A stretch of 32,000 nucleotides of DNA from Egibacteraceae bacterium (GCA_040905805.1 JBBDQS010000048.1:1-32000); one strand, 5' to 3'. Positions 2,042-26,084 are shown, counted from the stretch's first letter. The notes: generated by a model from the sequence alone, not told the origin. Program-made: numbers and translations.

Positions 2042-2057
2042 ATCGGGAGGCAAGAGG

Positions 2058-3778: not shown

Positions 3779-4185
3779 GTCCCGTGCCTGCGCCCCTGGT
3801 CGTCCTCGACCGCGTCCTGAGCCTCGAGCGCGGGAAGCGCGGCAGCGCCATCCGCAACGTGCCGAACAGCCTGATTATCTTCGACACCCATTTCCCCCGC
3901 TTCCCGGTCCTGCCCGGCGTGCTGATTCTCGGCAGCATGGGCCTGCTCGCCGCGAAGGTGCTCGACGAGGGGGACGGGTGGTGGCGTCTCGCCCAGGCCG
4001 AGCGCGTGCGCTTCCGCCACTTCGTGCAACCCGGTGACCAGCTCGCCCTGTCCATCGAGGTCAAGGACGCCACGGCGTCCACGGCGACCTGCACGGCGAC
4101 CGCCAGCGTCGACGGCAAACCCGTCACGACGGTCGGCCGGCTGCGGATGGCCCGGGCGGAGCACGCCGAAGGGGGTGCTCGGTGA
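3775..4185 (+). CDS. FabZ-like hot-dog dehydratase subunit with catalytic His but Gly at the Glu position
   Basis: 'LVVLDRVLSLE...FDTHFPRFPVLPGVLILGSMGLLA' matches the E. coli FabZ core 'FLLVDRVL...[20 protein letters not shown]' closely. The start is TTG 3775 (overlapping the KS stop) or GTG 3784. Confidence 0.8.
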   Translation: MSPVPAPLVVLDRVLSLERGKRGSAIRNVPNSLIIFDTHFPRFPVLPGVLILGSMGLLAAKVLDEGDGWWRLAQAERVRFRHFVQPGDQLALSIEVKDATASTATCTATASVDGKPVTTVGRLRMARAEHAEGGAR

Positions 4186-5456: not shown

Positions 5457-5480
5457 CAACCACAGACAGGAGGAGATCCG

Positions 5481-7823: not shown

Positions 7824-7832
7824 ACCTCGGCG

Positions 7833-9380: not shown

Positions 9381-9395
9381 GAAGGAGCGCCCAAC

Positions 9396-9926
9396 GTGAC
9401 CACCGCCGACGAGCACAAGCAGATCGTCCTGCGCTACATCGAGGAGGTCTGGAACAAGAACGACCCCTCGAGGTTCGACGAGTTCGTCGCCCCCGACGCG
9501 GTCTTCCACGACCTCGTCCGGGAGGGCAGCTTCCCGCCCGGCAGGGCCGCCGCGCAGGAGAACATGCGCCGGTTCCAGAAGGCATTCGGGCCGGACATGA
9601 CGATGGAGATCCACGACGTCATCGCGGAGGGCGACCGGGTCGTGTTCCGCTTCACGTCCGACGCCGTGCACCGCGGTGAGTTCCAGGGATTCCCCCCGAC
9701 CTACCGTTCGGGGACGGTGAACGGCCTCGTCGTCGTGCGCATGGAGGACGGGCGCATCGCCGAGGGCTGGGCGGAGCTCGACCAGATGGGCGTGGCGCGC
9801 CAGCTCGGTCTCATGCCCGGGCGGATGCCCCGTCCGCTGGCCCGGGCCATGGTGGCCGGTATCCGCCTCCGCGACCGGCTGGCCCGGCGCCGCTCGTCGG
9901 GGGACCGACCCGAGGCGACCCGGTAG
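9396..9926 (+). CDS. SnoaL-like (NTF2-fold, ester-cyclase-type) protein with a basic C-terminal tail
   Basis: GAAGGAG lies 9 nt upstream of GTG 9396. 'HKQIVLRYIEEVWNKNDPSRFDEFVAPDAVFHD' and 'DVIAEGDRVVFRFT...RMEDGRIAEGW' are typical of SnoaL-like polyketide-cyclase-family proteins. It is a paralog of the 12337-12843 product. Confidence 0.7.
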   Translation: MTTADEHKQIVLRYIEEVWNKNDPSRFDEFVAPDAVFHDLVREGSFPPGRAAAQENMRRFQKAFGPDMTMEIHDVIAEGDRVVFRFTSDAVHRGEFQGFPPTYRSGTVNGLVVVRMEDGRIAEGWAELDQMGVARQLGLMPGRMPRPLARAMVAGIRLRDRLARRRSSGDRPEATR

Positions 9927-9959
9927 CGACGTCAACCGAATCGAGTCGCGGGAGCAGCC

Positions 9960-10403
9960 ATGCCCAGCGCAGCGGACCGTGTCAGGAACGTCTTTCCCTC
10001 GCTCATCCTGCGCTCGCCCCTGCACCCGATCATGAGCGGTCGCTATGCGATCATCGAGTTCACCGGCCGCAAGAGCGGTCGCCGCTACGCCACGCCGATC
10101 GCCTACGTCCGCGACGGCGACCGTGTCCTGCTGTCGACCGACTCGCCGTGGTGGCGCAACGTGGCCGGGGGTGCCCCGGTGCGCCTGCGCTTGCGGGGTC
10201 GCACCGTCGCGGGCACGGCGACGGCGATCACCGACCCCGAGGAGGCCGCGGCCATCATCCGCCGACTGCTCGACGCGATCCCCTCCTATGCCAAACCGGC
10301 GCATCTGGCCCGGGAGGGCGGGCGGGTGAGCGACGCGGAGGTCGCGCGCGGCGTGGCCGCGGGCCGGGTCGGCATCGAGGTCGTCCTCGAGGGGTCGCGG
10401 TGA
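9960..10403 (+). CDS. Deazaflavin (F420)-dependent nitroreductase-family / split-barrel oxidoreductase (DUF385-like)
   Basis: 'FTGRKSGRRYATPIAYVRDGDRVLLSTDSPWWRNV' resembles the GRKSG..tP...W(Y)RN signature of the F420H2-dependent quinone reductase family. GGGAG lies upstream of ATG 9960. Confidence 0.55.
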   Translation: MPSAADRVRNVFPSLILRSPLHPIMSGRYAIIEFTGRKSGRRYATPIAYVRDGDRVLLSTDSPWWRNVAGGAPVRLRLRGRTVAGTATAITDPEEAAAIIRRLLDAIPSYAKPAHLAREGGRVSDAEVARGVAAGRVGIEVVLEGSR

Positions 10404-10855
10404 TGCTCGTCGAGATCGCACTGGTGGCGACGATCGTGCTCGTCGGGGTGGTGGCCGGCAACGAGATCGGGACGCTCGTGGTCATCCACCCCGCCCTGGA
10501 CCGGGTTCCCTACGCGTCCGGGCGGCCCGCCGCCCAAGCGGTCGTCGCGCGCTTCGGGCGGGTCATGCCCGTGCTGATGCCGATCACGATCGCCGTGACG
10601 TTCGTCACGGCGTTGGTCCTCGACGGCACCCCATCCGTGCTGCTGCTCCTCGCCGGCGCGGCGCTGGTCGCGATGCTCATCGTGACCTTCGCCGGTCTCA
10701 TGCCGCTCAACACCAGCCAGCTCGGGGCTGATGAGACCACGCCGGCGGACGAGTGGTACGGCTGGCGTGCACGGTGGCTGCGGCTGCACGCCGTGCGGGT
10801 CGTCTGCGACCTGGCCGCGCTCGTCCTGGTCGCGGTGGCCGCCGTCGTCCGCTGA
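10403..10855 (+). CDS. Small 4-TM membrane protein, DUF1772 / anthrone-oxygenase-like
   Basis: ATG 10403 shares its A with the upstream TGA (TGATG). There are four hydrophobic segments, and the 'GLMPLNTSQL...WRARWLRLHAVRV' tail resembles DUF1772. The track ORF start at 10148 overlaps the previous gene and is rejected. Confidence 0.5.
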   Translation: MLVEIALVATIVLVGVVAGNEIGTLVVIHPALDRVPYASGRPAAQAVVARFGRVMPVLMPITIAVTFVTALVLDGTPSVLLLLAGAALVAMLIVTFAGLMPLNTSQLGADETTPADEWYGWRARWLRLHAVRVVCDLAALVLVAVAAVVR

Positions 10856-10926
10856 CGGTGCCGGCGGGTTAGACTCCAAGGCGCGAGAAGGGCGGTCGGC
10901 GTCGGGTGCCGGCGGGAGGGGGCTCC

Positions 10927-11157
10927 ATGGCAGGGACCAGGGTGCTCGTCGTCGGCGGCGGCCTCGGCGGTGTGGTCGCTGTCATCGCCCTCCGGCAGGC
11001 AGGGCTGGACGCCGTCGTGTTCGAAGCTGCCCGGTCGGTCGAGGACGTGCTGCGCCTGGCAGCCGAGTGCACGGGCTTCGAGGAAGACCGCAAGGGTGTC
11101 ACGGACATGGAGGCAGTGCCGGGCGCTCGTCCGGAAAGGGGTGGTGAGGTGACATGA
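10927..11157 (+). pseudogene. Remnant of an FAD-dependent monooxygenase (N-terminal Rossmann segment plus a short internal piece)
   Basis: 'TRVLVVGGGLGGVVAVIALRQAGLDAVVFE' parallels 'KRVLIIGGGIGGTAAGVALRQAGLDAQVFE' of the adjacent full-length gene. The ORF is only 76 codons. It retains GGGAGGGGG + ATG, and its stop overlaps the ATG at 11154. Confidence 0.6.
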
Positions 11158-12350
11158 CAACCAGCGCAAAGCGCGTGCTGATCATCGGCGGCGGCATCGG
11201 CGGGACCGCGGCAGGGGTGGCGCTGCGGCAGGCCGGGCTCGACGCGCAGGTGTTCGAACGGTCCCCTGATCTTGCCCGGACCCATGTCGGCGGTTGCTAC
11301 GTCCTGTGGTTCGCGGGCGTGATGTCGTTGTCCCAGCTCGGTCTCGCGGACAAGGTCCATGCGCGCGGGCACCCGGTCACGCGCTTCGAGATGTGCGGCG
11401 CGAACGCCCGCGTGCTGAGCGCCGCCGACGTCGGCGAGCACGGACAGTCGCTCGGGGTGATGCCGGTGGCGGTCCGCCGGGCCGACCTCCTCGGTGTGCT
11501 CACCGACGCGCTCGACAAGGACGCGCTGCACCTCGGCGCGACCTTCCGGGATGTGGTGCAGGACTCGGTCACGGTGACCGCCACGTTCACCGACGGACGC
11601 CGGGAGAGCGGCGACGTCCTCGTCGGCTCCGACGGGCTCGACTCGTCCGTGCGCGCCCACCTGCACGGTCTCGAGCCGGCCCGACATCCCGGGTACGCCC
11701 ACTGGTCGGCGATCGCGGACGGCGACGGCGGCGCGCCTCCAGGGGTGTTCCGCGTCCTGCACGGCGACGGCGCCCGGTTCGCGTTCTTCCACATCGGTGA
11801 CGGGCGGGTGTGCTGGTGGTGCGTCCGCAACGCCCCGCCGGGACCGGCAGGTGACCGCTACGGCGACTACGACGAGCTGACCTCGTTCTTCCGCGGGTGG
11901 GACCCGACAGCCGCCGCGCTCCTGGCGGCGACCCCCCCGAAGGCCATCCACCGGCGTGACACGCTCGACCGGCCGCCGCTGCGCCGCTGGGGTCGCGGCA
12001 GGGTCACGTTGCTCGGCGACGCCGCGCACGCCATGACCTTCGACCTCGGCCAGGGCGCCGGCACGTCCCTGACGGACGCGGTCACCCTGGCCGCCCACCT
12101 GTCCGACAAGCCCGTGCTCGCCGGGCTGCGCACCTACGAGGACCTGCGGCGCTGGGTCACCACACCGCTGGTGCGGATGTCGCGGCTGGTCGGCGCCGCC
12201 TCCTCGTGGGACTGGCCGTTGGGCCCCAAGCTGAACGAGGCCTTCGTGGCCGCAGGCCGGCGGGGAGGGACGGTCGGGGCCCTGAAGCGCGACCTGCGGG
12301 GGCACCCGGCGATGCTGACCGAACGAGGAGGCGAACGTGCCGACACCTGA
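11154..12350 (+). CDS. FAD-dependent aromatic-ring monooxygenase (group A flavoprotein hydroxylase, UbiH/salicylate-hydroxylase-like)
   Basis: Motifs present: GxGxxG 'VLIIGGGIGGTAAG', 'VLVGSDGLDSSVR' (DG motif) and 'LLGDAAHAMTFDLGQGAGTSLTDA' (GD motif). Confidence 0.85.
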   Translation: MTTSAKRVLIIGGGIGGTAAGVALRQAGLDAQVFERSPDLARTHVGGCYVLWFAGVMSLSQLGLADKVHARGHPVTRFEMCGANARVLSAADVGEHGQSLGVMPVAVRRADLLGVLTDALDKDALHLGATFRDVVQDSVTVTATFTDGRRESGDVLVGSDGLDSSVRAHLHGLEPARHPGYAHWSAIADGDGGAPPGVFRVLHGDGARFAFFHIGDGRVCWWCVRNAPPGPAGDRYGDYDELTSFFRGWDPTAAALLAATPPKAIHRRDTLDRPPLRRWGRGRVTLLGDAAHAMTFDLGQGAGTSLTDAVTLAAHLSDKPVLAGLRTYEDLRRWVTTPLVRMSRLVGAASSWDWPLGPKLNEAFVAAGRRGGTVGALKRDLRGHPAMLTERGGERADT

Positions 12351-12843
12351 GGAGAACAAGGCGGTCATCCGCCGCTACCTCGAAGAGGCCTGGAACCGGG
12401 GCGACTGGACGGTCGCGGAGGAGGTCGTCGCCGAGGACGCGGTCTTCCACGACCAGGTCCGGGAGGGCGAGCTGCCACCCGGCCGGGAGGGCGTGCGCGT
12501 CGCCATGGAGCGGGTCCGCACCGGGATGCCCGACATGACCATGGACATCCACGAGGTCGTCGCCGAAGGCGACATGGTCGTCGTGCGTTGGAGCGCGACG
12601 GCAACCCAGGCGGGGCCCTTCAACGGCATCCCGCCGACCGACCGTGTCGCCACGCTGCACGCCATCAGCATGGTCCGCATGAAGGACGGACGCATCGTGG
12701 AGGGCTGGCAGGAGGCGGACAGGATGGGGCTGGCCCAACAGCTCGGGCTCATGCCCAAGGGGCAGATGCCCCGCCCGGTGGCCGGTGCGCTGGCCTTCGG
12801 GATCCGCTGCAAGGACCGCCTGGCCCGGCGGCGCCGGCGCTAG
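12337..12843 (+). CDS. SnoaL-like (NTF2-fold) protein with a basic C-terminal tail, paralog of 9396-9926
   Basis: GAGGAGG lies upstream of GTG 12337, which overlaps the monooxygenase gene by 14 nt. 'NKAVIRRYLEEAWNRGDW...AVFHD' and 'VVAEGDMVVVRWS...MKDGRIVEGW' are present. The tail is 'QLGLMPKGQMPRPVAGALAFGIRCKDRLARRRRR'. Confidence 0.7.
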   Translation: MPTPEENKAVIRRYLEEAWNRGDWTVAEEVVAEDAVFHDQVREGELPPGREGVRVAMERVRTGMPDMTMDIHEVVAEGDMVVVRWSATATQAGPFNGIPPTDRVATLHAISMVRMKDGRIVEGWQEADRMGLAQQLGLMPKGQMPRPVAGALAFGIRCKDRLARRRRR

Positions 12844-12844
12844 C

Positions 12845-13927
12845 TCATGCGGGGGTGGCGGCGGTCCAGTCGACGACGACGCCTGCGTAGATCCACTTGG
12901 TCGCCTCCACACCGATGAGCACCACCCGCTGTTCGGGTTGGATCATGCCCCTGCGCCACGCGTGGTCGAGGAACAGCGGCACCGCCGCGGAGCCGCAAGC
13001 CCCGGTCATGGCGAGGTTGTCGAAGATCTTGCCCTCCATCGCCTTCCACTCGTCGGTCAGCAGACCGTGCTCGGCAAGCGAGTCGAGCATCCACCCGACG
13101 TTGCCCTCGGGGATCAGGCACCAGTCGACGCTCTCGGCGGCGATGCCGCTGCGGCCGAGGGTGTCCGCGAGCGAATCCACCACCATCTGCGGGGTGAAGT
13201 CGCCGGCGCCGACCACGTCGACCTGGAGGTCGACCAGGCGCTTCCTGCTCAGCTGCTCGTGGATCGGCGCGTGCGTGCCGCCACCGATCGAGTGGATCCC
13301 CGCCTTCCTGGTGCCACCGATGGCGCACTGCGCCGAGCCGATGATCCCGCCCTGGTCGCTGTCGGTGGCCTGTAGCACGAAGGCTCCGGCCCCGTCCCCG
13401 AACATGTACAGGGGCAGCCGGTCACGCATGCGGATCTTGTTCGGGTCCTTGCCCACGAACACCGGAGCCATGACCGGCGAGATCGCCTCGCTGCCCACGA
13501 CGAGGGCGAACTCGTGGTCACCGCGCTCCAGCATCATCCGCGCGATGTCGAGCCCCTGGACACCGCCCGCGCCCCCGGACCGCAGCTCCATGGTGGCGCA
13601 GCGCTCGAGACCGAGCCGCTCCTGCAGCAGGTTCACACACGCGGGCAGGTGGTACTCGGGGGTCCCGGTGGACTGGATCATCAGGCCGAGCTGACCCGCT
13701 TCGACCCCGGCGGTCTCCAAGGCCCTGACCGTCGCCTTGTAGGCCATGTCGGTGTTGCTCTCGTGGTGCTCGCCGGTCTCGGGGTCGATCATCCAGTACC
13801 GCTGCTGGATCGAGATGCCCTCCTGCACGTCGGGGGAGAGCGACCCGACCAACCGCTCGATCTGGTCGTTGTCGATCGGGTCACCGGGCTGGTAACCCCC
13901 CGTGCCGATGATGTGCACCCTGCCCAT
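12845..13927 (-). CDS. KAS-III (FabH)-fold protein lacking the canonical Cys-His-Asn triad
   Basis: By eye it is collinear with E. coli FabH ('FGDGAGAFVL', 'LVVGSEAIS', 'SAAVPLFLD'). The three catalytic positions read Gly ('ELRSGGAGGVQGL'), Pro/Glu ('DWCLIPEGNVGW') and Ala ('MTGACGSAAVP'). Confidence 0.8.
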   Translation of the reverse strand: MGRVHIIGTGGYQPGDPIDNDQIERLVGSLSPDVQEGISIQQRYWMIDPETGEHHESNTDMAYKATVRALETAGVEAGQLGLMIQSTGTPEYHLPACVNLLQERLGLERCATMELRSGGAGGVQGLDIARMMLERGDHEFALVVGSEAISPVMAPVFVGKDPNKIRMRDRLPLYMFGDGAGAFVLQATDSDQGGIIGSAQCAIGGTRKAGIHSIGGGTHAPIHEQLSRKRLVDLQVDVVGAGDFTPQMVVDSLADTLGRSGIAAESVDWCLIPEGNVGWMLDSLAEHGLLTDEWKAMEGKIFDNLAMTGACGSAAVPLFLDHAWRRGMIQPEQRVVLIGVEATKWIYAGVVVDWTAATPA

Positions 13928-14111
13928 GCTGCCCGCTTTCGCTCAAAGGCCCGGCGGCCATGTTCCCCCTCCGCCTCATGAGGGTCAAGGCCCATCCGTT
14001 CCGTCGCAGCCCGTAGACGGGCGTCGCGGCCGGGTGTAGGTTCCGGTGGTTGGGGCCGGGGGACTGTCGCACGGTGATGGGCGGCCCTGGGGCGAGGGAA
14101 AGGTGGGGCAC

Positions 14112-16116: not shown

Positions 16117-16968
16117 TCAGCCCTCGACGGCGGCGTCGAGGTGGTTGAGTGCGAAGAACTCGTCGGTGACGAACAGTGCCTCCCGGATCTGCTCCCTCGT
16201 GCTGCGGCTGTGCAGGGCCGTCAGCTCCGCCCGCCCGTCGGGATAGCGCATGATCGCCTTCACGGTCGACGCGTCGACCCGCAGCTCGTTCCAGGACGGG
16301 GGCACGAGACCGCGGAGCCGCGCCGTCGCCGCAGTCGAGCAGTTGGCCACCAGCGTCCCCCCGAGCGACCAGAAGAAGGGGACGTGGCGGTGGCCGGTGA
16401 GGACGATGTCCACCTCGAGGTCGCTGATCAGGGTGAGCACGTCCCCGGCGTCGTTGACGACGCTCATCTCACGACCCGAGCCGGGGATGGGCAGGACGTG
16501 ATGGTGCAGGAGCAGGATCTTGAGATCGTCGGGCCGGTCGAACTGCTCGCGGATCCACACGTACCACTCACGGCCGATATGGCCCTCCTCGAGGTCAGGT
16601 TGCGAGGAGTCGAGCCCCACCACGGTGATGCCGGACAGGCGGAGGCGCTCGCTCCGCAGCGGTTCGAGCTCCAGCCGCCGGCGCAGGAAGCGGCCACCGA
16701 AGTGGCGGAGGAAGTGGACGTAGCCGACGTTGCGTGAATCGTGGTTGCCCGGGACCACCACCGTGGGGGCCGTCAGCTGTGCCAGCCAGGAGACCGCCTC
16801 CTCGTACTCCCATGCGTAGCCGCTGGCCGTGAGGTCGCCGGCGACGAGCACGACGTCGGGTTCACTGCTGTTGACCTGGGCGACGACGTCGGCCAGCAGC
16901 CGGGGGCGGAACGTCGGCTCGCCGCAGTGGATGCTGCCCAGGTGGGCGATCCGCACCGGCTCGATCAT
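16117..16968 (-). CDS. Metallophosphoesterase (calcineurin-like), motif-I Asp replaced by Ser
   Basis: ATG at 16968 lies inside track ORF 16117..17211, with GGAGAGGAG upstream. Motifs: 'HLGSIHCG' (expected DxH), 'VAGDLT', 'VPGNHD', 'LLLHHHV', 'TGHRHVP'. Confidence 0.85.
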   Translation of the reverse strand: MIEPVRIAHLGSIHCGEPTFRPRLLADVVAQVNSSEPDVVLVAGDLTASGYAWEYEEAVSWLAQLTAPTVVVPGNHDSRNVGYVHFLRHFGGRFLRRRLELEPLRSERLRLSGITVVGLDSSQPDLEEGHIGREWYVWIREQFDRPDDLKILLLHHHVLPIPGSGREMSVVNDAGDVLTLISDLEVDIVLTGHRHVPFFWSLGGTLVANCSTAATARLRGLVPPSWNELRVDASTVKAIMRYPDGRAELTALHSRSTREQIREALFVTDEFFALNHLDAAVEG

Positions 16969-16994
16969 TGTGGGCTCCTCTCCCGCACCCGGCG

Positions 16995-17840
16995 TCAGGC
17001 GACCGGATTGGACACGCGGAACGCCTCCGTGAGGTAGAACGCCTCGCGGATCAGCTCCCGGGTGGTGCGGCTGCGGATCACCGACAGGCTGCGATGCCCG
17101 GTCTCGTAGTGCATGAACACCTTGATCGTCGACGCGTCCACCTGGATCTCGTTCCACGACGGTGGGGTCAGCCCGCGCAGCCGGCGGGTCGCCGCCGTCC
17201 CGGAGTTGCACACCAGGAGCCCGTTGAGCGCCCAGAAGAACGGGACGTGCTTGTGGCCGGACAGGACGAGGTCGACGCCGAGGTCCGTGAGCAGCTCCAG
17301 CAGCTCGCCGGCATCGGCGATCGTGTTGCGCTCACGCCCGGTGCCGGGGATCGACACCAGATGGTGGTGCAGGACGAACACCTTGAGGTCGTCGGCGTGA
17401 TGGAACTGGTCGCGTATCCAGTCGTAATGCGGGGCGCCGACCTCTCCCTGGTTGACGTCGGCCTGGGACGAGTCCACGGCGACGACCGTGAGGCCGCCGG
17501 CCCGGATGCGCTCCGCTCGCTCCGGCGACAGCGGCAGCCGCAGGGCGCTGAACCGCGCGCCGAAGTGCCGTTCGAAGTGCACGTTGCCGAGGTTGCGCGC
17601 GTCGTGGTTGCCGGGCACGACGACGACCGGCGCCTCCAAGCGACCGATCCATCCGGCGGCCTCCGCGAACTCCTCGCCGTAGCCGGCGGCCGTGAGGTCA
17701 CCCACCACGGCGACGGCGTCTGGGCGCAGGGCGTTGATCCGCTCCACGGCCTGCTCCAACAGGGAGGCTTCGAACGTCGGGGTGCCGCAGTGGATATCGC
17801 CAAGCTGAGCTATGCGCAGTGGATGGTCGGTCACTGCCAT
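16995..17840 (-). CDS. Metallophosphoesterase (calcineurin-like), all five motifs intact; candidate class-III-type phosphodiesterase
   Basis: ATG at 17840 lies inside track ORF 16995..18407. Motifs: 'LGDIHCG', 'VVGDLT', 'VPGNHD', 'FVLHHHL', 'SGHKHVP'. It is collinear with the 16117-16968 product, with roughly half the residues identical by eye. Confidence 0.85.
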   Translation of the reverse strand: MAVTDHPLRIAQLGDIHCGTPTFEASLLEQAVERINALRPDAVAVVGDLTAAGYGEEFAEAAGWIGRLEAPVVVVPGNHDARNLGNVHFERHFGARFSALRLPLSPERAERIRAGGLTVVAVDSSQADVNQGEVGAPHYDWIRDQFHHADDLKVFVLHHHLVSIPGTGRERNTIADAGELLELLTDLGVDLVLSGHKHVPFFWALNGLLVCNSGTAATRRLRGLTPPSWNEIQVDASTIKVFMHYETGHRSLSVIRSRTTRELIREAFYLTEAFRVSNPVA

Positions 17841-17924
17841 GTGGCCCTGCCCGCGCGCTCCGTCGGTGTGGGGCATGCACCCCGGATGATCCCGTATTCT
17901 CGCACCGAGAGGGAGGTGGAGGCC

Positions 17925-18383
17925 GTGGTGCGTCGTATCACGCACAGTCTGGTCAAGGCGCTCCGTCAGGTCCGGGAGTTCGCGGGGCTGTCGGATGCCG
18001 CTCTCCTCGAGGTCGTCGGGGCATCGGTGAACCTCTTCTTCCCGGCTGGTGCGGTGGTCTTCCGCAAGGGCGCCACATCCGATGGCCTGTACGTCGTCCT
18101 GTCCGGGCGGGTGATCGTCGCCGACGAGCCCGGTGGGCCGGAGGTTGCCCAGATCGGCCCGGGAGACTACTTCGGTGAGCAGTCCCTCCTCCTGGAGACC
18201 ACGCGGTCGCACAGCGTCGCGGCTGTGCAGGACGCTGAGATCCTCGTGCTGCCGGCGAGCTCGTTCCAGCGGCTGCTCGAGGGCAACCCGGTCCTGGCGG
18301 GCCAGGTCGAGGACAAGCTCCGAGCCCGCCTTGCGGCCACGGACGGTCCGGGCAGCGCGGGACAGGGTCCTGCAGCCGGATGA
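17925..18383 (+). CDS. Stand-alone cyclic-nucleotide-binding (CNB) domain protein, no DNA-binding domain
   Basis: This is the 3' third of track ORF 16968..18383. 'FPAGAVVFRKGATSDGLYVVLSGRV...IGPGDYFGEQSLLLETTRSHSVAAV' has the CNB beta-roll and phosphate-binding cassette. GGGAGGTGGAGG precedes GTG 17925; ATG 17886 is an alternative start. Confidence 0.8.
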   Translation: MVRRITHSLVKALRQVREFAGLSDAALLEVVGASVNLFFPAGAVVFRKGATSDGLYVVLSGRVIVADEPGGPEVAQIGPGDYFGEQSLLLETTRSHSVAAVQDAEILVLPASSFQRLLEGNPVLAGQVEDKLRARLAATDGPGSAGQGPAAG

Positions 18384-18410: not shown

Positions 18411-18929
18411 CTAGTCCCGCAGGTACCCGTACCGGCCCCGGTGGAAGATCAAGGGCCGGGGCGCATCCGCATCGGCGCCGATGGCGAGCACCTCACCGAC
18501 GAAGATCTCATGGTCTCCGCCCGGATGCTGGTCCGCCACCCTGCAGTCCATGAACGCGGCCACCCCATCGATGACCGGCGAGCCTGTGACCACCTCGCGG
18601 TGGGGGATCCCGCGGAAGGCGGCGGTGCCCCTGGGGCGATCACGAGACGCGAAGTAGTTGGACAGGACCTCCTGCTCGGCGGTCAGGATGTTGACCGCGA
18701 ACACCCCATTGCGCTCGAGAGCCTCGCTGCCCTGCGTGCCGCTGATGACGCACACGAGGATGAGGGGCGGGTCGAGGGACAGCGACGAGAAGGCATTGGC
18801 GGTCATCCCGTACGGCTCGTCCTGACCCTGCGTGGTGATGACCGTCACGCCGGTTGCGAAGGCCCCCATGACCGCCCGGAACTCCTTGACGCCGAAGGGC
18901 TCCACGGCCAGCTGCTGCAGCCTCTGCAT
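18411..18929 (-). CDS. NAD(P)H-flavin reductase (flavin_reduct domain, HpaC-like)
   Basis: 'FRAVMGAFATGVTVITT...PYGMTANAFSSLSLDPPLILVCV' and 'GDHEIFVGEVL' are typical of small flavin reductase components. The ATG shares one base with the upstream stop (TGATG at 18927-18931). Confidence 0.85.
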   Translation of the reverse strand: MQRLQQLAVEPFGVKEFRAVMGAFATGVTVITTQGQDEPYGMTANAFSSLSLDPPLILVCVISGTQGSEALERNGVFAVNILTAEQEVLSNYFASRDRPRGTAAFRGIPHREVVTGSPVIDGVAAFMDCRVADQHPGGDHEIFVGEVLAIGADADAPRPLIFHRGRYGYLRD

Positions 18930-19819
18930 CAGGCATCTGCCCCAGCGTGCGACGGCCCCCCGCCGAGCTCCCCGAGGCGGCGCTGGATGACGTCGTCGAG
19001 GTTTTGCGTGGTGGACAGCGACTGGGCGACCAGCGACCGGAATGCCTCCCGCGGCATCGCCAAGAGCGTCGTTGGGGCCACTGCCCGAACCGTGGCGGTG
19101 CGGGGGATGTCGCGCAGGATCGCCACCTCGCCGAAGAACTGCCCCGGCCCGAGGGTGGCCACCGTCTGTTGCGAACCGCCGTTCTCGCGGACGACCTCGA
19201 CCTCGCCTTCGACGATGATGAAGAACTTGTCGGCCGGCCCCCCCTGCCGGACGATGACCTCCCCGGACTCCACCTGCACGGTCTGCAGCCGGGCCTGGAG
19301 GCCGGCGATCTCGGCCGGCGGCAGGTCCCGGAGGACGTTGAAGACCTCGGTGCGCTGGAACACCGACCCGAGACCCCTCGCGTTCTCCGGCGCCGCGCTC
19401 GTGTTGTCGATGAACTGCACCCGGGTGGGCGCGATGCGGAAGAACGCGATGTGGCTGTTCTCGGTCCCCGCCACCTCGGGGAACTTCACGCCGAACCGCT
19501 GCACGGCGTGCTCGATCTGCGCGGCGTCGAGGATCTGGCGGGCCTCGCCCTCGCCCTGGATGCCCTTGGTCTGCGTCCAGTCAGCGGTGTACTGGTCGAC
19601 CGTGAAGGACACGGCCGGGTTCTGGTCGATGTGCTGGGCGGTGACGGAGTCCGGCCGGGTCCACACGTACAGCGTCAACCCGTCGCTCGCGTACAGCAGC
19701 GTCGCGGCGTGCGGCAGACCGCCCGACGATGCCGTGGCCAGGGTCAAGGTCTGCTGGGACTCCAGGTATGCCAGCGCCTTGGGCGAGACCTCGGGTGCGG
19801 CATCCTCCGGATCGGTCAT
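18929..19819 (-). CDS. Fusion protein: PNPOx-like FMN-binding split-barrel domain + C-terminal cNMP-binding domain
   Basis: The N-terminal half has 'TLTLATASSGGLPHAATLLYASDGLTLYVWTRPDSVTAQHIDQNPAVSFTV' (pyridoxamine-5'-phosphate-oxidase-like). The C-terminal half has 'VESGEVIVRQGGPADKFFIIVEGEV...LGPGQFFGEVAILRDIPRTATVRA' (CNB). GGAGGGGG lies upstream of the ATG at 19819. Confidence 0.8.
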   Translation of the reverse strand: MTDPEDAAPEVSPKALAYLESQQTLTLATASSGGLPHAATLLYASDGLTLYVWTRPDSVTAQHIDQNPAVSFTVDQYTADWTQTKGIQGEGEARQILDAAQIEHAVQRFGVKFPEVAGTENSHIAFFRIAPTRVQFIDNTSAAPENARGLGSVFQRTEVFNVLRDLPPAEIAGLQARLQTVQVESGEVIVRQGGPADKFFIIVEGEVEVVRENGGSQQTVATLGPGQFFGEVAILRDIPRTATVRAVAPTTLLAMPREAFRSLVAQSLSTTQNLDDVIQRRLGELGGGPSHAGADA

Positions 19820-19865: not shown

Positions 19866-22343
19866 TCAGATGGCCGTACGGCGCCGCAGCACCAGCCAGG
19901 TGATGGCGGTGAAGGCCACGATGAAGGCACCCATGATGAGCCAGTTCTGCCAGATGGCGCGGGAGAAGCTGTCGCTGTACTGCAGCGCCAACGCCGCTCC
20001 CACGGGGTTCTGGGACTCCTCGAAGAGGTCGAGGAGGTTGGCTGCCCTGCCGAGAGCCTCGAACCCCCACCGCAGTGCGATGATATTGGAGAGCTCGCGA
20101 CCGACGGTGTTCATCTCGGACACCGCGACGATCGCTCCCGACAGCAGCACCTGCGGCAGGATCCACGCCGACAGCAGGTCGGTCGCCACCTGCGACGTGG
20201 GCGCGATGGCCGACGTAAACAGCGAGAAGGCCAGTCCGACCAGGGCGATGACGAAGAGCGTGATCATCAGGGGGGCGTACACGTTCAAGCCCTCGTCGGG
20301 CAGGCGGTCGGTCACCCACATCATCGCCACCATGACCGTGACCGCCAGGGCGAGCACGGGCGCGAGGAACGTGGTCTTCGACAAGAGGTAGGGGAAGACG
20401 GCGAGATTCACCAGCCGCTCTCGTCGGAAGATGGCGAACTCCTTCACGATCTCCTGCACGCCGTACAGCAGGCCGAAGAGGAAGGCGGTCATCGACAGGA
20501 AGAAGAGCAGCTGGAACGCCGACGTGGGGTTGTTGGGCCCCGGTTCGAAGAGGTCCGTGCGGAACAGCGCGATCAGCAGGGCGGCGAAGATCACCGGCTG
20601 GGCGAAGAGCGGGATCATCCGGGGTGGGTTGCGCACGTACAGCTCGGCGGTGCGACGGCTCAGCACGGCGAACTGGCGGACCCACAAGCCCAAGCCGCGA
20701 GCGGGCCGCGCGATCGAGGCCCCCGCCGCGGCCTGCGCGGGCGTCGAATCGGCCGGTCGCTGTTGGTCGGCCTTCATCGCACGGTACTCGGGGGATTCCC
20801 GGAAGCGCGCCGCCCACTCCTCCGGCGTGCCCTCGTTCTCCAGCTTCACGTAGATCTCGTCGAAGACCTCCACGCCGAAGTACTCCAACGCCCGCTTGGG
20901 GGGACCGGCGAATGCCAGGTGGCCGCCGCCTGCGAGGAACACGATCTTGTCGCACAGGCCGACGTTGCTCGTCGCGTGCGTGGTGAGGAGCACGGTGCTG
21001 CCCGCTCGTGCCAGGTCGCGCATCAGCGTCATCATCGAGGCGTCGGTGGCGGGGTCCAGACCTGAAGTGGGCTCGTCGAGGTAGAAGACCCGGGGTCGGG
21101 TCAACAGCTCCACCCCGATGCTGGCCCGCTTGCGCTGCCCGCCGCTCAGCTTGTCGACGCGAAGACCGGCCTGCTCGGTCAGCGAGAGCTCTTCCAGAGC
21201 CCGGTCGACGGCTTTGCCCCGCTCCTCGGGCGTGGTGTCGCCCGGCAGGCGCAGACGCGCGGCGAAGTCCAGCGTGACCCGCAGGGGTAGCTCGGTGTGG
21301 ATGATGTCGTCCTGCGGCACGTACCCGAGCGTCGTGCGGTACAGGGCCCGCTGCGCGTAGTAGTCGCCGCCGTTGTACAGCACCTGCCCGCCGGTGGCGG
21401 GGCGCACGCCCGAGAGGGCGTCCATGAGGGTGCTCTTTCCCGCCCCGCTGCCACCGACGATCGCCACGAGCTCGCCGGGCAGCACCGTCAGCGAGACATT
21501 CTGGAGGAGGTTCTTGCCCTTCGTGACCACCTTGCGCAGCCCGGACGCGTCGATGCGGATCCCGCGTGGTTCCGTGACCCGTTGCAGCTCGCGCCGGTCG
21601 AACAGCAGACGCTGGTCCGCCAACCAGATCTGGTCCCCGTCCTTGAGCTCGGCACGTCGGACCTCCGCGCCGTTCAGGAAGGTGCCGTTCGCGCTGCCGA
21701 GGTCGGCCAGCTCGTAGCTGTCGCCGAAGCGGCGCACCACCGCGTGACGGGCCGACACGACGGTGGAGTCCAGCACGACGTCGTTGTCAGGATGGCGCCC
21801 GATCCGCAGCTCCTGGCGATCCGCGAGCATGGCCGCGAGGTTCAGGTGCTCGATCGCGTACTCCTGCGAGGTGCGGCTCCGAAGCTCGGCCGCCTGCTGG
21901 ACGGCTTCCGCGAGCGCAGGTTGCTGCTCCAGCAGCTGCCGGAAGTCGTTCGCGCCGATCATCCACAGCCGAGCAGCAGTCTCCGCACGCACCGTGGCGC
22001 TGCGGGGCTGGCCGCTGGTCAGGGACATCTCGCCGAAGAACTCCCGGGGCCCCAAGCGAGCGATCGTCTTCGGTGGATCGCCGGAGCCGGCCTGGACCAG
22101 GAGCGTCCCGAGCTCGATCAGGTAGGCCGCGTCGCCGGCGTCACCCTCGCGGACCACGACGTCTCCTGCCGCGACGTCAACGGGCCGCAGCAGCTTCGCG
22201 ACGTCGGGCAGCGACAGGGGGGACAGCAGCTGGAAGATGCCGATCCTGCTCAGCATGTCGATGCGACGGCTGTCGCTTGCCGCCGCCCTGGTCGGGATGG
22301 AAGTCGTGGCGTGGAATGGTGGTTTGTGTTCCTGCCCGACCAT
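19866..22343 (-). CDS. ABC half-transporter (NBD + ABC-2-type TMD) with an N-terminal cNMP-binding + FHA module
   Basis: ATG 22343 has GGAGG 6 nt upstream; the track uses TTG 22349. CNB: 'FFGEMSLTSGQPRSATVRA'. FHA: 'RIGRHPDNDVVLDSTVVSARHAVV...LGSANGTFLNG'. Walker A 'GGSGAGKST', signature 'LSGGQRKR', Walker B 'VFYLDEPTSGLD', followed by about 6 TM helices. Confidence 0.9.
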   Translation of the reverse strand: MVGQEHKPPFHATTSIPTRAAASDSRRIDMLSRIGIFQLLSPLSLPDVAKLLRPVDVAAGDVVVREGDAGDAAYLIELGTLLVQAGSGDPPKTIARLGPREFFGEMSLTSGQPRSATVRAETAARLWMIGANDFRQLLEQQPALAEAVQQAAELRSRTSQEYAIEHLNLAAMLADRQELRIGRHPDNDVVLDSTVVSARHAVVRRFGDSYELADLGSANGTFLNGAEVRRAELKDGDQIWLADQRLLFDRRELQRVTEPRGIRIDASGLRKVVTKGKNLLQNVSLTVLPGELVAIVGGSGAGKSTLMDALSGVRPATGGQVLYNGGDYYAQRALYRTTLGYVPQDDIIHTELPLRVTLDFAARLRLPGDTTPEERGKAVDRALEELSLTEQAGLRVDKLSGGQRKRASIGVELLTRPRVFYLDEPTSGLDPATDASMMTLMRDLARAGSTVLLTTHATSNVGLCDKIVFLAGGGHLAFAGPPKRALEYFGVEVFDEIYVKLENEGTPEEWAARFRESPEYRAMKADQQRPADSTPAQAAAGASIARPARGLGLWVRQFAVLSRRTAELYVRNPPRMIPLFAQPVIFAALLIALFRTDLFEPGPNNPTSAFQLLFFLSMTAFLFGLLYGVQEIVKEFAIFRRERLVNLAVFPYLLSKTTFLAPVLALAVTVMVAMMWVTDRLPDEGLNVYAPLMITLFVIALVGLAFSLFTSAIAPTSQVATDLLSAWILPQVLLSGAIVAVSEMNTVGRELSNIIALRWGFEALGRAANLLDLFEESQNPVGAALALQYSDSFSRAIWQNWLIMGAFIVAFTAITWLVLRRRTAI
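21597..22256 (-). repeat. Copy A of a ~0.66-kb dispersed direct repeat encoding the CNB+FHA module (in the ABC gene)
   Basis: It is collinear at DNA level with 25329-25994. For example, 21611-21654 'gctggtccgccaaccagatctggtccccgtccttgagctcggca' matches 25342-25385 'gctggtccgccagccggatctggtcaccgtccttgagctcggcc'. Confidence 0.7.
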
Positions 22344-22493
22344 GCTCAACCTCCATCAAACGACCCTGATGGCGGACCTCCGTTTGCGGACAGGAACCGC
22401 CCTGAGTTCCCCGACAGGCTTGCCCCGCGTGCAGGTCGGATCGTAGCGCCTCGGAGCCGTCAGGCACAGGTCTGATCCGTTCCTATCCGTGCG

Positions 22494-25400
22494 TCAGCCC
22501 GGGGCAACGGGATCACGGCTCACCAGCGCCAGCAGGGATGGCAGGACCAGCAGCGAGGCTGCCAGCGCCAAGAAGATCATCACCGCCGTGAGCAGGCCAT
22601 ACGAGGCAAAAAGGGGCATGGGCGCGAGGGCGAGGATGCCGAAGCCGAGCATGCTCGAGAGCGCCGACGCCCCGAGCGCCAGGCCGGTGCTGGCCCCGGT
22701 CGCCCGCAGCGCCGCCTCGCGGGTGGAGAACTGGGCGATCTCCTCCCGGTAGCGCATGGTGATGTGGATGGCGAAGTCGATGCCGATGCCGATGGAGATG
22801 GCCCCGATGGTCGCGGTGACGAGGTTGATCGTGAACCCGAACGCGTACATGAACGCGTATAGCCACGCGACGACGAGCAGGATCGGCACGATGCTCACGA
22901 CCGCGTAGCGCAGGCTGCGCATGAAGATCGCGGCGACGAGCAAACAGAGCACGATCGCGATCGGCAGGGAGATCTGCAACGCCCGGGCGATGGCGTCGAG
23001 GCTGGCCTGCCGCGCGAACGGCGCACCGGTCAGCACCGCTGTCGCGGCGGGGTCGATGGCCTGCAGGCGATCCTCCAGGTCGGCCACGAGCGGCTCGAGC
23101 TGGGTCCGGGCCGCCTCGACGCCCTCCTGCCCGCGGGTACCCGTGATCGGGAAGTCGACCCTGCTTGCCTGCGTCTCCCCATCCGGCGACTGGTACAGCA
23201 CCTCCCCGACGGCGTCGGGGGTCCGTGCCAGCCGCGCCTCGTCGGCGGCCACACCGGCCTCGAGCACGGTCGTGTAGACGGCCGCCAGCTGCTCGGCGGT
23301 GTCGGGAAGGCCATCCCCGTCGTCGTCGGTCAGCTCCACACCAGCCGATGCGGCGACGGCCGCGGCGGCGGCAGGGGCCTCGGCGACATCCCGGACGACG
23401 CCGAGGACGCCGTCCTCGAGCTGCACCCTGCCGTCGTCGTCGCGGGCCAGGGCCGGGCTGTCGGCGGCGTGGATCGCATCGACGAACTCCTGCACGGCCG
23501 TGAGCGCGCGAGGATCGGTGAGGTCGCCCTCGAGATACACGATCCCCGGCTCCCCGACGGACCCGGCGAAGTGCTCGTCGATCTTGTCCAGCCCCACGAC
23601 GAAGTCGCTGTCCGGCGTGAAGAAGTCGTTGACGTCGAACTCGGCCGGGACCTGCACCGCGAAGAAGGCACATCCCACCGTGATGCCCAACACGACCGGC
23701 AGCAGCGCCACCCGGTAGCGTGCCAGGCCGGCGACGACGCCACCGAGCGTGGTGGCCAAACGCCCGGGGTCGCTGGCGCGCGGCTCGGACGTCGCCGGCT
23801 CGGTGACCGCACCGTCGGCGGTCACCGGCTGCGGCGATGCGGCCGCGCGACCCGCGATGACGCAGGGGGCGACCAGGAAGGCCACGATGTACAGGCCCAG
23901 CAGGGCGACACCCGCGGCGGGCAGGACGAAGGCGCTCAGCACGACCGACCCCATCGCGGCCCCGGATGCCAGCACCGACCCGACGACGGCCAGCAGCCGC
24001 CGGCGCGGAGACCGCGGTGCCGGCCCGACACGCTCCTCGACGCGCATGAGCACGACCGGGGCCACGATGCCGAGGACCAGGAACGCGGAGAGCAGCCCGA
24101 GCGATGCGGCGATGCCGAACTGCACGATCGACTGGATCCCCGACGACACGTTGGCGAGGAAGGCCGCCGCGTCGGAGCTGAGCGCGAGGACCAGTGCACC
24201 CATCACCCCGCTCATGCCCAGGAGCAGCCCCACCCTCGGGGTCGTGCCGGCTGCCCGCACCTCCTTGTAGCGGCCGAACGCATGGAAGGCGAAGTCCACC
24301 CCGAACGAGATCATCGCGATCGGCACGATGGTGCTGAGGATCTGGTCGGCCTCCATGCCGAGCAGATTGGACAGGCCGTTCAGCCAGACGATCAGCGTCG
24401 CGAGCCCGCCGCCGACGATGGCGACCGGCCAGTAGGACCGGTAGGTCAACCCCACGATGAACAGGACGCCGAGGATCGCGAAGCCGATGAAGGGCCCGGC
24501 TGCCTGCCCCTGCTCCGCGCTGGTGAGGTTCACGTCGATCGCGATGCCCCACGTGCGGCTGTGGGCCTCGCCGCCTTCGAGCACCTCGACGACGTCGCGG
24601 GCGAACTCCTCCTTGGTCGTGTCGTCCACGCCGATCGTGGCCCCGGCCGGCGGCCCCCCGACGGCGTCGTCGTCGGCGAGCACGACGAAGCTGGTGGCCG
24701 GCACCAGCCAGTCGCCGGTGTCCGGGTCGCGCGTCGACTGTGCCGACAGCCCCAGCTCGGCGATCCCCGCGTCCTCGATCAGCCGGCTTGCCGCCGACCG
24801 GACGTCCGCGTCGTTGGCTGCGGCCAAGCCGCCGATGCCGGTCTGCCGGAGCTCGGCGTCCACCATGTCGGCGATCGTGTGGAGGCCGTCCACCTCCATG
24901 TCGGCCTGCGGATCGAAGAAGGACCACAGCTTGGGGCCGATGTCGGGATCGTCGCGCAGGGCCTGGCCGTTGGCGAGCAGTTCCGCAAGGGGTTCGGCGC
25001 GCAGCAGGTCGCCGTCACGGGCCTCCACCACGAATGGGATGAGGAACGTGGGCGACGCGAACCGCTCGTTGACGAAATCGCGGGCCGTGAACACCTCCCC
25101 GGCGGGCTCCTGCGACGCGAAGCCGTCCGGGGGCAGCGCGAGGAACGGGACGGCGAGCAGGGCGGTGGCCGCCAACGCCAGCGCGATGACGATCCCCGAG
25201 CGGCGGGCCATCCAGCGCACGAGCCGCGACGGCTCGTCGGGGTCCCGCTTCGGGACGACCGGCTCGGGGCCAGCCGGCTCCGGCGAAGGGGTCTCACGGC
25301 GCTGATCGCCTCGCTTGAGCCCGCGGACGTCGAAGACGAGGCGCTGGTCCGCCAGCCGGATCTGGTCACCGTCCTTGAGCTCGGCCACGCGCACGGGTGC

Positions 25401-26084
25401 GCCGTTCACGAACGTCCCGTGGGCGCTGCCGAGGTCCGACAGCTGGTAGCCGTCCCCGAACTGACGGACGACCGCATGCTGGGCGGAGACGGCCGGCGCG
25501 TCGAGCACGAGGTCGTTGTCGGGATGGCGGCCGATGCGCAGCTCGTCGCGTTCGGCCACATCGGAGGCCAGGTTGCGGGGGCCCTCCGCGGGCTTCCCCT
25601 GCTCGCTGGAGCTGGCGCGTAGTGCCGCCGTCTGACGCAGGCCGCGCGCCAACCCCGGCTCGCGTTCGAGGAGACGCTGGACGTCCGTGGCACCGATGGC
25701 CCACAGGCGCGCGGCGGTCTCCGCCCGCACGGTGGCGCTGCGCGGCTGGTCGTTCACGAGGGCCATCTCCCCGAAGAACTCCCCGGGGCCCAGCCGGGCG
25801 ATGGGCTCCCGCTGCTCGCCGGCTTCGGGCTCGACCAGCACGGTGCCCTGCTCGATCAGGTAGAGGGCGTCACCGGTGTCGCCCTCCCGCACCACGACCC
25901 GACCGGCGGTCACCTCGATGGGTCGCAGGAGCTCGGCGACGTCGGTCTGCGACAGCGGCGACAGCAGCTGGAAGACCGCCACCCGACTGAGCATCTGCAC
26001 CCGTCGCGGCAGGTCCGTGGCCTCCGGCGTCAGCGGGATGGCACTCGTGGCCTTCTCCGGGCGCTGCTCCTCCCGTCCGACCAT
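22494..26084 (-). CDS. MMPL/RND-superfamily transporter (12 TM, two large extracytoplasmic loops) with an N-terminal cNMP-binding + FHA module
   Basis: ATG 26084 has GGAGGG about 6 nt upstream; the track start at 26171 adds an Arg-rich leader. CNB: 'FFGEMALVNDQPRSATVRA'. FHA: 'RIGRHPDNDLVLDAPAVSAQHAVV...LGSAHGTFVNG'. Two 1+5 TM bundles follow ('ISFGVDFAFHAFGRYKE', 'GIGIDFAIHITMRYREE'). Confidence 0.85.
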   Translation of the reverse strand: MVGREEQRPEKATSAIPLTPEATDLPRRVQMLSRVAVFQLLSPLSQTDVAELLRPIEVTAGRVVVREGDTGDALYLIEQGTVLVEPEAGEQREPIARLGPGEFFGEMALVNDQPRSATVRAETAARLWAIGATDVQRLLEREPGLARGLRQTAALRASSSEQGKPAEGPRNLASDVAERDELRIGRHPDNDLVLDAPAVSAQHAVVRQFGDGYQLSDLGSAHGTFVNGAPVRVAELKDGDQIRLADQRLVFDVRGLKRGDQRRETPSPEPAGPEPVVPKRDPDEPSRLVRWMARRSGIVIALALAATALLAVPFLALPPDGFASQEPAGEVFTARDFVNERFASPTFLIPFVVEARDGDLLRAEPLAELLANGQALRDDPDIGPKLWSFFDPQADMEVDGLHTIADMVDAELRQTGIGGLAAANDADVRSAASRLIEDAGIAELGLSAQSTRDPDTGDWLVPATSFVVLADDDAVGGPPAGATIGVDDTTKEEFARDVVEVLEGGEAHSRTWGIAIDVNLTSAEQGQAAGPFIGFAILGVLFIVGLTYRSYWPVAIVGGGLATLIVWLNGLSNLLGMEADQILSTIVPIAMISFGVDFAFHAFGRYKEVRAAGTTPRVGLLLGMSGVMGALVLALSSDAAAFLANVSSGIQSIVQFGIAASLGLLSAFLVLGIVAPVVLMRVEERVGPAPRSPRRRLLAVVGSVLASGAAMGSVVLSAFVLPAAGVALLGLYIVAFLVAPCVIAGRAAASPQPVTADGAVTEPATSEPRASDPGRLATTLGGVVAGLARYRVALLPVVLGITVGCAFFAVQVPAEFDVNDFFTPDSDFVVGLDKIDEHFAGSVGEPGIVYLEGDLTDPRALTAVQEFVDAIHAADSPALARDDDGRVQLEDGVLGVVRDVAEAPAAAAAVAASAGVELTDDDGDGLPDTAEQLAAVYTTVLEAGVAADEARLARTPDAVGEVLYQSPDGETQASRVDFPITGTRGQEGVEAARTQLEPLVADLEDRLQAIDPAATAVLTGAPFARQASLDAIARALQISLPIAIVLCLLVAAIFMRSLRYAVVSIVPILLVVAWLYAFMYAFGFTINLVTATIGAISIGIGIDFAIHITMRYREEIAQFSTREAALRATGASTGLALGASALSSMLGFGILALAPMPLFASYGLLTAVMIFLALAASLLVLPSLLALVSRDPVAPG
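25329..25994 (-). repeat. Copy B of the CNB+FHA-encoding dispersed direct repeat (in the MMPL gene)
   Basis: Same orientation as copy A, about 3.7 kb away. By hand count, about 70 of the first 100 encoded residues are identical, with a single 1-aa offset across the module. Confidence 0.7.

Follow-up and report, generated by a model that had tools for sequence, protein, structure and literature searches.

How have two exporters of unrelated classes, encoded side by side, come to begin with the same regulatory head, and what would such a shared head do? The question is raised by a stretch of 32,000 nucleotides from an Egibacteraceae bacterium (GCA_040905805.1, JBBDQS010000048.1:1–32000; hereafter the window; G+C content about 70%). 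Two open reading frames (ORFs) on its minus strand, predicted earlier from the sequence alone, were confirmed by ORF calls and translation: a gene for an MMPL protein of the resistance-nodulation-division (RND) superfamily (22494..26084, 1196 aa) and a gene for an ATP-binding cassette (ABC) half-transporter of the ABCG/ABC-2 type (19866..22343, 825 aa), in which a nucleotide-binding domain (NBD) precedes the transmembrane domain (TMD). Both proteins start with MVG; the genes are arranged head to tail (26084 to 22494, then 22343 to 19866) and separated by 150 nt. Each protein carries at its N-terminus a cyclic nucleotide-binding (CNB) domain followed by a forkhead-associated (FHA) domain. Our analysis indicates, with a probability of roughly 0.7, that the 5' end of the ABC gene was copied onto the MMPL gene, has been kept there under selection, and would place both exporters under shared control by cyclic nucleotides (cNMP) and Ser/Thr kinases.

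In a BLASTP comparison of the two proteins, residues 1–255 of the ABC protein aligned with residues 1–258 of the MMPL protein with 164 of 258 identities (64%, E 1e-95), and no significant similarity was found between the bodies. Domain profiles agree: Pfam identified cNMP_binding at residues 56–140 (71 bits), FHA at 180–241 (70.2 bits), ABC_tran at 280–427 and ABC2_membrane at 556–764 of the ABC protein, and cNMP_binding at 57–141 (78.2 bits), FHA at 183–244 (68.1 bits) and MMPL (89 bits) in the other, all above the gathering cut-offs (27.5 bits for PF00027, 20.7 for PF00498, 20.5 for PF03176). The central claim of the original prediction, one CNB-FHA head on two unrelated tandem exporters, thus stands, and its N-terminal similarity holds in a proper alignment; its measurements needed correction. 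The module common to both proteins spans about 258 aa, including a 27-aa tail, and not about 220 aa, and a recount gave 60 identical residues among the first 100 instead of about 70. The DNA encoding the heads shows 73.7% identity across 653 nt and appears as a pair of direct repeats (D2/D3).

The MMPL head starts with a tail predicted to be disordered (aa 1–27; 26004..26084, minus strand, as are all features of both genes), which contains A-T-S-A-I-P at residues 12–17 (26034–26051). The CNB domain follows (aa 28–161; 25602..26003; PF00027, 4.8e-22) with the phosphate-binding cassette FFGEMALVNDQPRSATVRA at 25722–25778, then a connector (aa 162–177; 25554..25601), which forms part of a stretch of low sliding identity between the two heads, and the FHA domain (aa 178–258; 25311..25553; PF00498, 9e-19) with its GR (25512–25535), SxxH (25467–25490) and GSAHGTFVNG (25401–25430) motifs. 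In an AlphaFold2 (AF2) model covering the head, pLDDT was 89.6 and pTM 0.70; both domains exceeded 90, the tail reached 55–63 over residues 1–20, and the connector was softer, with pLDDT 67 at residues 161–170. A chain spanning both a CNB and an FHA domain was not found in the PDB. BLASTP homology of the head stops at residue 258, and a Pro/Glu-rich junction linker of 30 residues (aa 259–288, GDQRRETPSPEPAGPEPVVPKRDPDEPSRL; 25221..25310), delimited by alignment with 13 headless orthologues, leads to the MMPL/RND body (aa 289–1196; 22494..25220), which starts with VRWMARRSG. The linker has no homology to the ABC body or to the N-termini of the orthologues, and remnants of the ABC body were sought in it and not found.

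Hydropathy of the body revealed TM1 at 294–320, large extracytoplasmic loops at 321–525 and 817–1028, and transmembrane bundles at 526–684 and 1029–1190. Together with the PF03176 match, this 12-TM topology and the Asp-bearing motifs GVDFAFH (24282–24302) and GIDFAIH (22764–22784), which we read as the TM4 and TM10 motifs, respectively, place the protein in the MMPL/RND superfamily. Its NCBIfam scores were below the cut-offs (HAE3 TIGR00921, 155 vs. 352 bits; actII MMPL, 94 vs. 875; HpnN, 71 vs. 752), and its matches in the PDB, HpnN and MmpL3, reached only E 1e-6 to 1e-7. These profiles assign it to the RND/MMPL proteins but to none of the curated subfamilies (mycobacterial MmpL, HpnN and HAE3).

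The ABC head (aa 1–255; 21579..22343) has a tail with A-T-T-S-I-P (22293–22310), the phosphate-binding cassette FFGEMSLTSGQPRSATVRA (21984–22040) and the FHA motif GSANGTFLNG (21669–21698). Its body (19866..21578) consists of the NBD and a six-helix ABC-2 membrane domain in a single polypeptide (PF00005, 97.7 bits; PF01061, 72.4 bits), the organization of an ABC-2/ABCG half-transporter. Walker A (GGSGAGKST, 21429–21455), the signature LSGGQRKR (21126–21149) and Walker B (VFYLDEPTSGLD, 21054–21089) were all identified, and the nearest solved relatives of the NBD are ABCA and ABCG transporters.

Gene callers disagree on the start of the ABC gene: NCBI (PGAP) gives 796 aa from an internal Met (MLSRIG), and the Logan gene caller gives 825 aa. 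The longer call is more likely, because GGAGG precedes the upstream ATG and the 29 additional residues (22257–22343) are homologous to the tail of the MMPL head; the NCBI start is probably too short. The 796-aa version retains both CNB and FHA. A Shine-Dalgarno GGAGG lies 7–8 nt 5' of the ATG of each gene, in the form GGAGGG for the MMPL gene. Promoter and terminator scans and Rfam gave no match in the locus.

As the sequence comes from metagenome-assembled genomes (MAGs), the fusion could be an assembly or binning artefact that joined the ABC 5' end to the MMPL gene. We regard this as hardly credible, since the same 1196-aa ORF was assembled three times: in the NCBI record MEX2619693.1 ('MAG: MMPL family transporter [Egibacteraceae bacterium]'; P0121), a 100% match to the window protein, in a second MAG with one amino acid difference (P0388), and in the Logan contig L091, an independent assembly (exact). 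Codon statistics do not change across the junction, and a repeat-mediated mis-join is excluded because, at 74% DNA identity, the heads are too divergent for it.

The head appears to be an addition to an MMPL protein that is headless elsewhere. The protein search covered 5.8 billion protein clusters, and the genomic search covered GTDB with one genome per species (185,579 species genomes). Thirteen headless orthologues were found in the protein databases (882–966 aa, 45–65% identity, MMPL domains only), and about 19 genomic loci from Acidimicrobiia, Chloroflexota, Dehalococcoidia and Thermoplasmatota aligned solely downstream of query residue ~257, mostly from 270–295, some of them being cut by contig ends. 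The N-terminus of the closest orthologue (P0122), MRWLARRSG, corresponds in the alignment to VRWMARRSG of the window protein, from residue 289, and all 13 begin there. The fusion preserves the ancestral start at aa 289 as a GTG in frame, with an ATG three codons on (25209–25220). Head remnants upstream of the headless orthologues were sought and not found. No other MMPL or RND protein with a CNB-FHA head was detected in the protein clusters or species genomes, which agrees with the absence of a known precedent stated at the outset; MMPL proteins with a C-terminal CNB and no FHA do occur (P0164, 922 aa; P0206, 668 aa). On these searches, the CNB-FHA-MMPL protein is a new and apparently single-lineage fusion.

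The ABC protein, by contrast with the MMPL fusion, belongs to a common architecture, and the fusion proved widespread for one of the two proteins: CNB-FHA-ABC is common yet uncharacterised, and CNB-FHA-MMPL was seen in no other organism searched. Among the best ABC homologues of the full-length search (at least 48% identity), about 117 of 120 have the order CNB-FHA-NBD-ABC-2 TMD, and PF00027, PF00498, PF00005 and PF01061 were present in all 22 other ABC proteins matched by the head. The window ABC gene matches more than 100 sequence clusters with 48–68% identity over 96–100% of its length, and these matches make it a full and unexceptional member of a family that is annotated but uncharacterised; the MMPL protein, sharing the head alone, is not a member. 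Named sources of the family are Egibacteraceae, the cultured Euzebya pacifica, Thermomicrobiales, Thermoleophilaceae and Acidimicrobiia, and further genomic copies were found in Thermomicrobiales and Dehalococcoidia. The Euzebya pacifica member (P0157) is annotated as 'ATP-binding cassette domain-containing protein', and JGI labels the family 'ABC-type multidrug transport system ATPase subunit/CRP-like cAMP-binding protein'; full-text literature searches yielded no paper on the architecture.

A phmmer search against 1.84 billion representatives (50%-identity clusters) returned mostly multi-CNB repeat proteins, the fusion itself lying behind another representative, and supplied stand-alone and RCC1-linked heads. 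Two proteins consist of CNB and FHA alone (P0314, 252 aa; P0316, 257 aa) and are 40–41% identical to the MMPL head. The original prediction knew of no CNB-FHA combination as a unit; on its recurrence as the standard N-terminus of the ABC family and in these other settings, CNB-FHA is a conserved, though unstudied, unit. In an RCC1-fronted subfamily of about 1300 aa (P0291, P0399, P0406, P0410, P0415, P0422 and P0424), seven-bladed propellers precede CNB-FHA-ABC, the RCC1 repeats in front of the head taking up about 490 aa in P0291-type variants; P0305 (732 aa) combines RCC1, CNB and FHA without a transporter and is possibly truncated. A further candidate stand-alone head, P0001 (358 aa, CNB and FHA), was rejected as a frameshifted CNB-FHA-ABC gene: its sequence enters the start of the NBD and continues as Arg-rich out-of-frame text.

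Head phylogeny points to the ABC gene as the donor. Neighbour joining of 27 heads on Kimura distances placed the MMPL head among the ABC heads, with the window ABC head as its partner (bootstrap 69%). It is 65.9% identical to that head vs. 59% for the next best, and among 125 full-length heads its best non-self match is the neighbouring ABC protein (296 vs. 258 bits). Both window proteins share, besides the MVG start, the motif (A)T[ST]xIP at residues 12–17, which is not family-wide. The MMPL head is most likely derived, to judge from these comparisons, from the 5' end of the ABC gene by duplication and in-frame fusion. The first ~0.78 kb of the ABC gene (start codon, tail, CNB and FHA) would have been duplicated in the lineage of this Egibacteraceae MAG and joined in frame, via the new linker, to the MMPL/RND gene next to it at that gene's original start; the simplest route would be a local tandem duplication with a fusion-creating junction, followed by loss of the redundant copies. 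Local duplications do occur here, as evidenced by tandem metallophosphoesterase paralogues in the same window. The suspected transfer of the module is borne out by the position of the MMPL head, nearest or near-nearest to its neighbour within the ABC heads; it was not a recent one, since dS of about 0.9 makes the fusion event old.

The history of the head since then indicates constraint. Between the two heads, dN/dS was 0.27/0.90 = 0.30 overall, 0.28 for CNB and 0.26 for FHA, and the MMPL head retains 51 of the 52 positions that are at least 90% conserved in other ABC heads, true ABC orthologues retaining 46–52. By these measures, the MMPL head is kept under purifying selection. They also bear on the view that the head is an untranslated or functionless relic, its in-frame ORF being incidental, and that translation of the transporter begins at the GTG (aa 289) or the ATG (aa 293). 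The survival of a GTG at the start used by the orthologues, and of the ATG beyond it, speaks for such a relic; however, the 288-codon ORF is unbroken despite the dS of ~0.9, it is maintained in both MAGs, the head has GC3 0.91 and GC2 0.47, and the internal start has no Shine-Dalgarno comparable to the GGAGGG before the upstream ATG. A relic is accordingly quite improbable.

Most of the residues expected for ligand binding are kept in both heads. The pattern G-E-x-A/S-L ... R-[ST]-A was found in each phosphate-binding cassette, and the full cassette F-G-E-...-P-R-S-A-T-V-R-A is present in both; we take its Glu to serve the ribose 2'-OH and its Arg the phosphate. Across 61 family heads, Gly105 and Glu106 are invariant (61/61), and the phosphate-binding Arg is present in 46 and replaced in 15; the MMPL head keeps Arg115. 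The best Foldseek match of the MMPL-head CNB is the CNB domain of MloK1 (TM-score 0.86), and its nearest solved relatives are PKA-R, PKG and MloK1. The nearest solved relative of the FHA domain is GarA/Rv1827 (E ~4e-13). All canonical phosphothreonine-binding residues (G-R, S-x-x-H and the Asn of S-x-N-G-T) are present in the ABC-head FHA, and G185-R186, S200 and H203 are kept in that of the MMPL head, which has His222 in place of the Asn. The CNB domains may bind cAMP or cGMP, and the FHA domains phosphothreonine.

The surroundings of the pair suggest what may be exported. A polyketide-like biosynthetic gene cluster, identified by profile scans, occupies 263..13942 of the window and contains genes for KR, a FabA-like protein, three KS genes including a KS-KS fusion, an amine oxidase, two SnoaL proteins, an F420H2 quinone reductase, an FAD mono-oxygenase and KAS III. 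The same cluster surrounds or abuts ABC and/or MMPL orthologues at six other loci (L001–L003, L006, L087 and L092), and in four of them (L001–L003 and L092) the ABC and MMPL pair lies within it, among the polyketide synthase (PKS) genes. By analogy with exporters encoded beside such genes, both transporters probably export the product of the cluster. The cluster recurs in several uncultured lineages with a KS-KS fusion of about 788 aa, a FabA/ApeI-like protein and a phytoene-desaturase-like oxidase, and the clusters of relatives additionally hold AfsA, anthrone oxygenase and an HAD-thioesterase.

In the proposed mechanism, both heads face the cytoplasm, because RND N-termini and ABC NBDs are cytoplasmic, and the MMPL head would be attached there to TM1. 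Binding of cNMP by the CNB domain and of phosphothreonine, made by a Ser/Thr kinase, by the FHA domain would alter the conformation or self-association of the head, and this change would gate or cluster the transporter, by analogy with the FHA module of Rv1747; channels gated through a CNB domain are a second analogy. The ancestor would have had the ABC step alone under sensor control; after the duplication, an ATP-driven exporter and one driven by the proton motive force (PMF) would receive the same two inputs. We infer this same-signal control of both exporters, and likewise the ligands, the kinase and cyclase, the effect on transport and the substrate.

Several observations weigh against this account, the first of them concerning its history. 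The bootstrap of the sister pair is just 69%, and the window ABC head is equally near to the orthologue P0138 (66.5%), so that either the duplication is old or the donor could have been another ABC gene. Here the MMPL gene precedes the ABC gene, whereas ABC precedes MMPL in the only other lineage with an adjacent pair (L001–L003 and L092); more than one rearrangement is therefore needed, and no intermediate was found. A duplicated promoter was sought, and the upstream regions of the two genes showed no homology beyond the ribosome-binding site and start codon. The bootstrap value, the match to P0138 and the lack of upstream homology leave some room for a head that came from elsewhere, either from a stand-alone CNB-FHA gene upstream of MMPL that lost its stop codon and became fused, or from the ABC gene of another organism, and stand-alone proteins of this kind do exist (P0314 and P0316). 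We consider such a source unlikely: the stand-alone forms are only 40–41% identical to the MMPL head, the neighbour remains its best match among the 125 heads, the MVG start and TSxIP motif are shared with that neighbour, and an ABC-derived stand-alone intermediate would amount to the same history as duplication of the neighbouring ABC 5' end. Because the GTG and the nearby ATG persist, a headless isoform produced by internal initiation is also possible. Finally, members of the ABC family occur away from the cluster (L089, L094 and L096).

The remaining points concern the signals. A gene for a Ser/Thr kinase (Pkinase) or a nucleotide cyclase was not found among the ~30 ORFs scanned in the window. 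The Asn of the FHA loop, presumably equivalent to Rad53 N107, is replaced by His222 in the MMPL head; this position is Asn in 44 of the 61 heads, and the MMPL head alone has His. The connector stretch (aa 148–169) of the window heads is only 25% identical, the family sequence QEYxVEHxNLA having become KPAEGPRNLA in the MMPL protein. Because of the diverged connector and the His for Asn, the two heads may not respond identically. Moreover, CNB-like domains can bind other ligands, such as that of HetC, which binds ppGpp in vitro (PMC10986499). The CNB might accordingly sense another ligand or be purely structural, in which case the shared head would be real and the joint cNMP-and-phosphothreonine logic wrong; the 15 family heads with a replaced Arg and the lack of a cyclase gene in the window fit this. 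We doubt it, as the cassette is complete in the two window heads, their closest relatives of solved structure are true sensors of cNMP, and the locus also encodes a second pair of CNB proteins, besides a pair of CpdA-like phosphoesterases.

The survival of the head after its probable move to an unrelated body argues for a body-independent mode of action, e.g., regulated self-association. A more specific version, which we rate as a long shot, is that the head is a mutual docking device: under cNMP control, the FHA of one transporter would bind the phosphorylated T-[ST]-x-I-P tail of the other, uniting ABC and MMPL in one polyketide export cluster. In that case, a kinase would phosphorylate the conserved Thr (pT+3 = Ile) at residues 12–17 of both tails, and the complex would be a two-pump counterpart of the phosphorylation-driven nanoclustering of Rv1747. 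The TSxIP tail motif is possibly analogous to the N-terminal Thr motif of GarA, which, once phosphorylated, binds GarA's own FHA domain.

Under the duplication account, the locus offers a natural domain swap, in which a sensor head evolved on an ABC protein sits on an RND-type exporter and is retained under selection, in one uncultured species. A head that works without specific contacts to the ABC NBD (e.g., through oligomerisation or clustering) would constrain models of the CNB-FHA-ABC family and of Rv1747. The post-translational control of bacterial exporters is little understood, next to nothing being known of it for RND/MMPL pumps beyond phosphoproteomic hints (PMC6463170), and 'plug and play' regulatory domains on transporters are an already recognised theme (PMC10710835). 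The analysis also flags a large unstudied family whose export activity, in some cases for a secondary metabolite, seems to be a meeting point of cyclic-nucleotide and Ser/Thr-kinase signals.

Four CNB proteins are encoded inside 8 kb of the locus. The third is a PNPOx-like (F420/FMN) protein with a CNB domain, identified by Pfam (18929..19819, minus strand), separated from the ABC gene by 46 nt on its downstream side and probably in the same operon; its CNB was considered as a recent copy of the head and ruled out, being only 40% identical to the head CNB. A flavin reductase gene (18411..18929, minus strand; Pfam 1.3e-43) abuts it. The fourth CNB protein stands alone (165 aa; 17886..18383, plus strand; Pfam 2.5e-21); this gene and the flavin reductase gene are also called in the Logan contig L091. 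The two tandem paralogous metallophosphoesterase genes (16995–17876 and 16117–16968, overall 16117..17876, minus strand; Pfam) are 71% identical in DNA over 300 nt (direct repeat D1). Their NCBIfam matches are CpdA/SpdA-like with E ~1e-8, far under the cut-offs; their designation as established cAMP phosphodiesterases was therefore dropped and kept as a lead only, and their role at the locus could conceivably be the degradation of cNMP.

Upstream of the MMPL gene, a lactate permease and a D-lactate dehydrogenase-like gene were found (26238–29996, minus strand). The latter lies in a 716-aa ORF (27846–29996) that matches D-lactate dehydrogenase in its C-terminal half only and overlaps a high-GC3 ORF without hits (28847–30094). 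A multicopper oxidase with an additional N-terminal cupredoxin domain (30096–31796, minus strand) is unrelated to the exporters. At one of the loci away from the cluster (L089), the ABC orthologue P0141 is surrounded by an island of CNB-fused genes (750–18340), including fusions with aldehyde dehydrogenase, pyridine-nucleotide disulphide oxidoreductase, patatin and DUF5995, as well as an 859-aa CNB protein; the island suggests rampant CNB domain shuffling in these actinobacteria.

Compared with the CNB-FHA-ABC family, the MMPL protein has a 12-TM RND/MMPL body in place of the NBD and ABC-2 body. A characterised counterpart of the ABC protein is Rv1747 of Mycobacterium tuberculosis, with the order FHA-1, disordered linker, FHA-2, NBD and ABC-2 TMD, which is positively regulated by its FHA domains and PknF (PMC3138270) and forms clusters depending on phosphorylation (PMC9312465). 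Both are NBD-then-TMD ABC-2 exporters with an N-terminal cytoplasmic regulatory module containing FHA. However, the window ABC protein has a single FHA, with CNB in the place of FHA-1, and is thus not of the two-FHA Rv1747 type; the window heads lack a long Thr-bearing disordered interdomain linker, and pknF lies in the Rv1747 operon, whereas the window operon has no kinase gene. The window FHA is nearer in sequence to GarA/OdhI than to any other solved FHA, although GarA and OdhI are soluble stand-alone metabolic regulators of actinobacteria.

The pairing of exporters recalls the export of PDIM in M. tuberculosis, which needs both DrrABC and MmpL7 (PMC6463170, PMC11539658): as in the window, ABC-2 and MMPL exporters are encoded together beside PKS genes. 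In contrast, Drr comprises three genes and has no sensor domains, a CNB/FHA head is absent from MmpL7, and the window MMPL body is distant from MmpLs (E ~1e-6); a shared substrate would be a matter of analogy. Fusions of CNB domains to other transporters are also on record. P0164 and P0206 are RND-superfamily transporters fused to a cNMP-binding domain; unlike in the window protein, the CNB is C-terminal, no FHA is present, and the origin is independent (27–28% identity over less than one-fifth of the window MMPL query). In Nostoc PCC 7120, the ABC exporter HetC begins with a CNB-like domain that it needs for function (PMC10986499), and related CNB-peptidase-ABC exporters occur in cyanobacteria; HetC differs in being a PCAT exporter of type I (ABC_membrane) that has a C39 peptidase and lacks FHA, and similar architectures were found among our matches (P0166 and P0237). 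MloK1 and SthK are the best matches of the CNB domain in structure and sequence (36–39% identity), and in both, membrane transport is gated by a fused CNB; they are channels with a C-terminal CNB and no FHA, whereas the window proteins are pumps.

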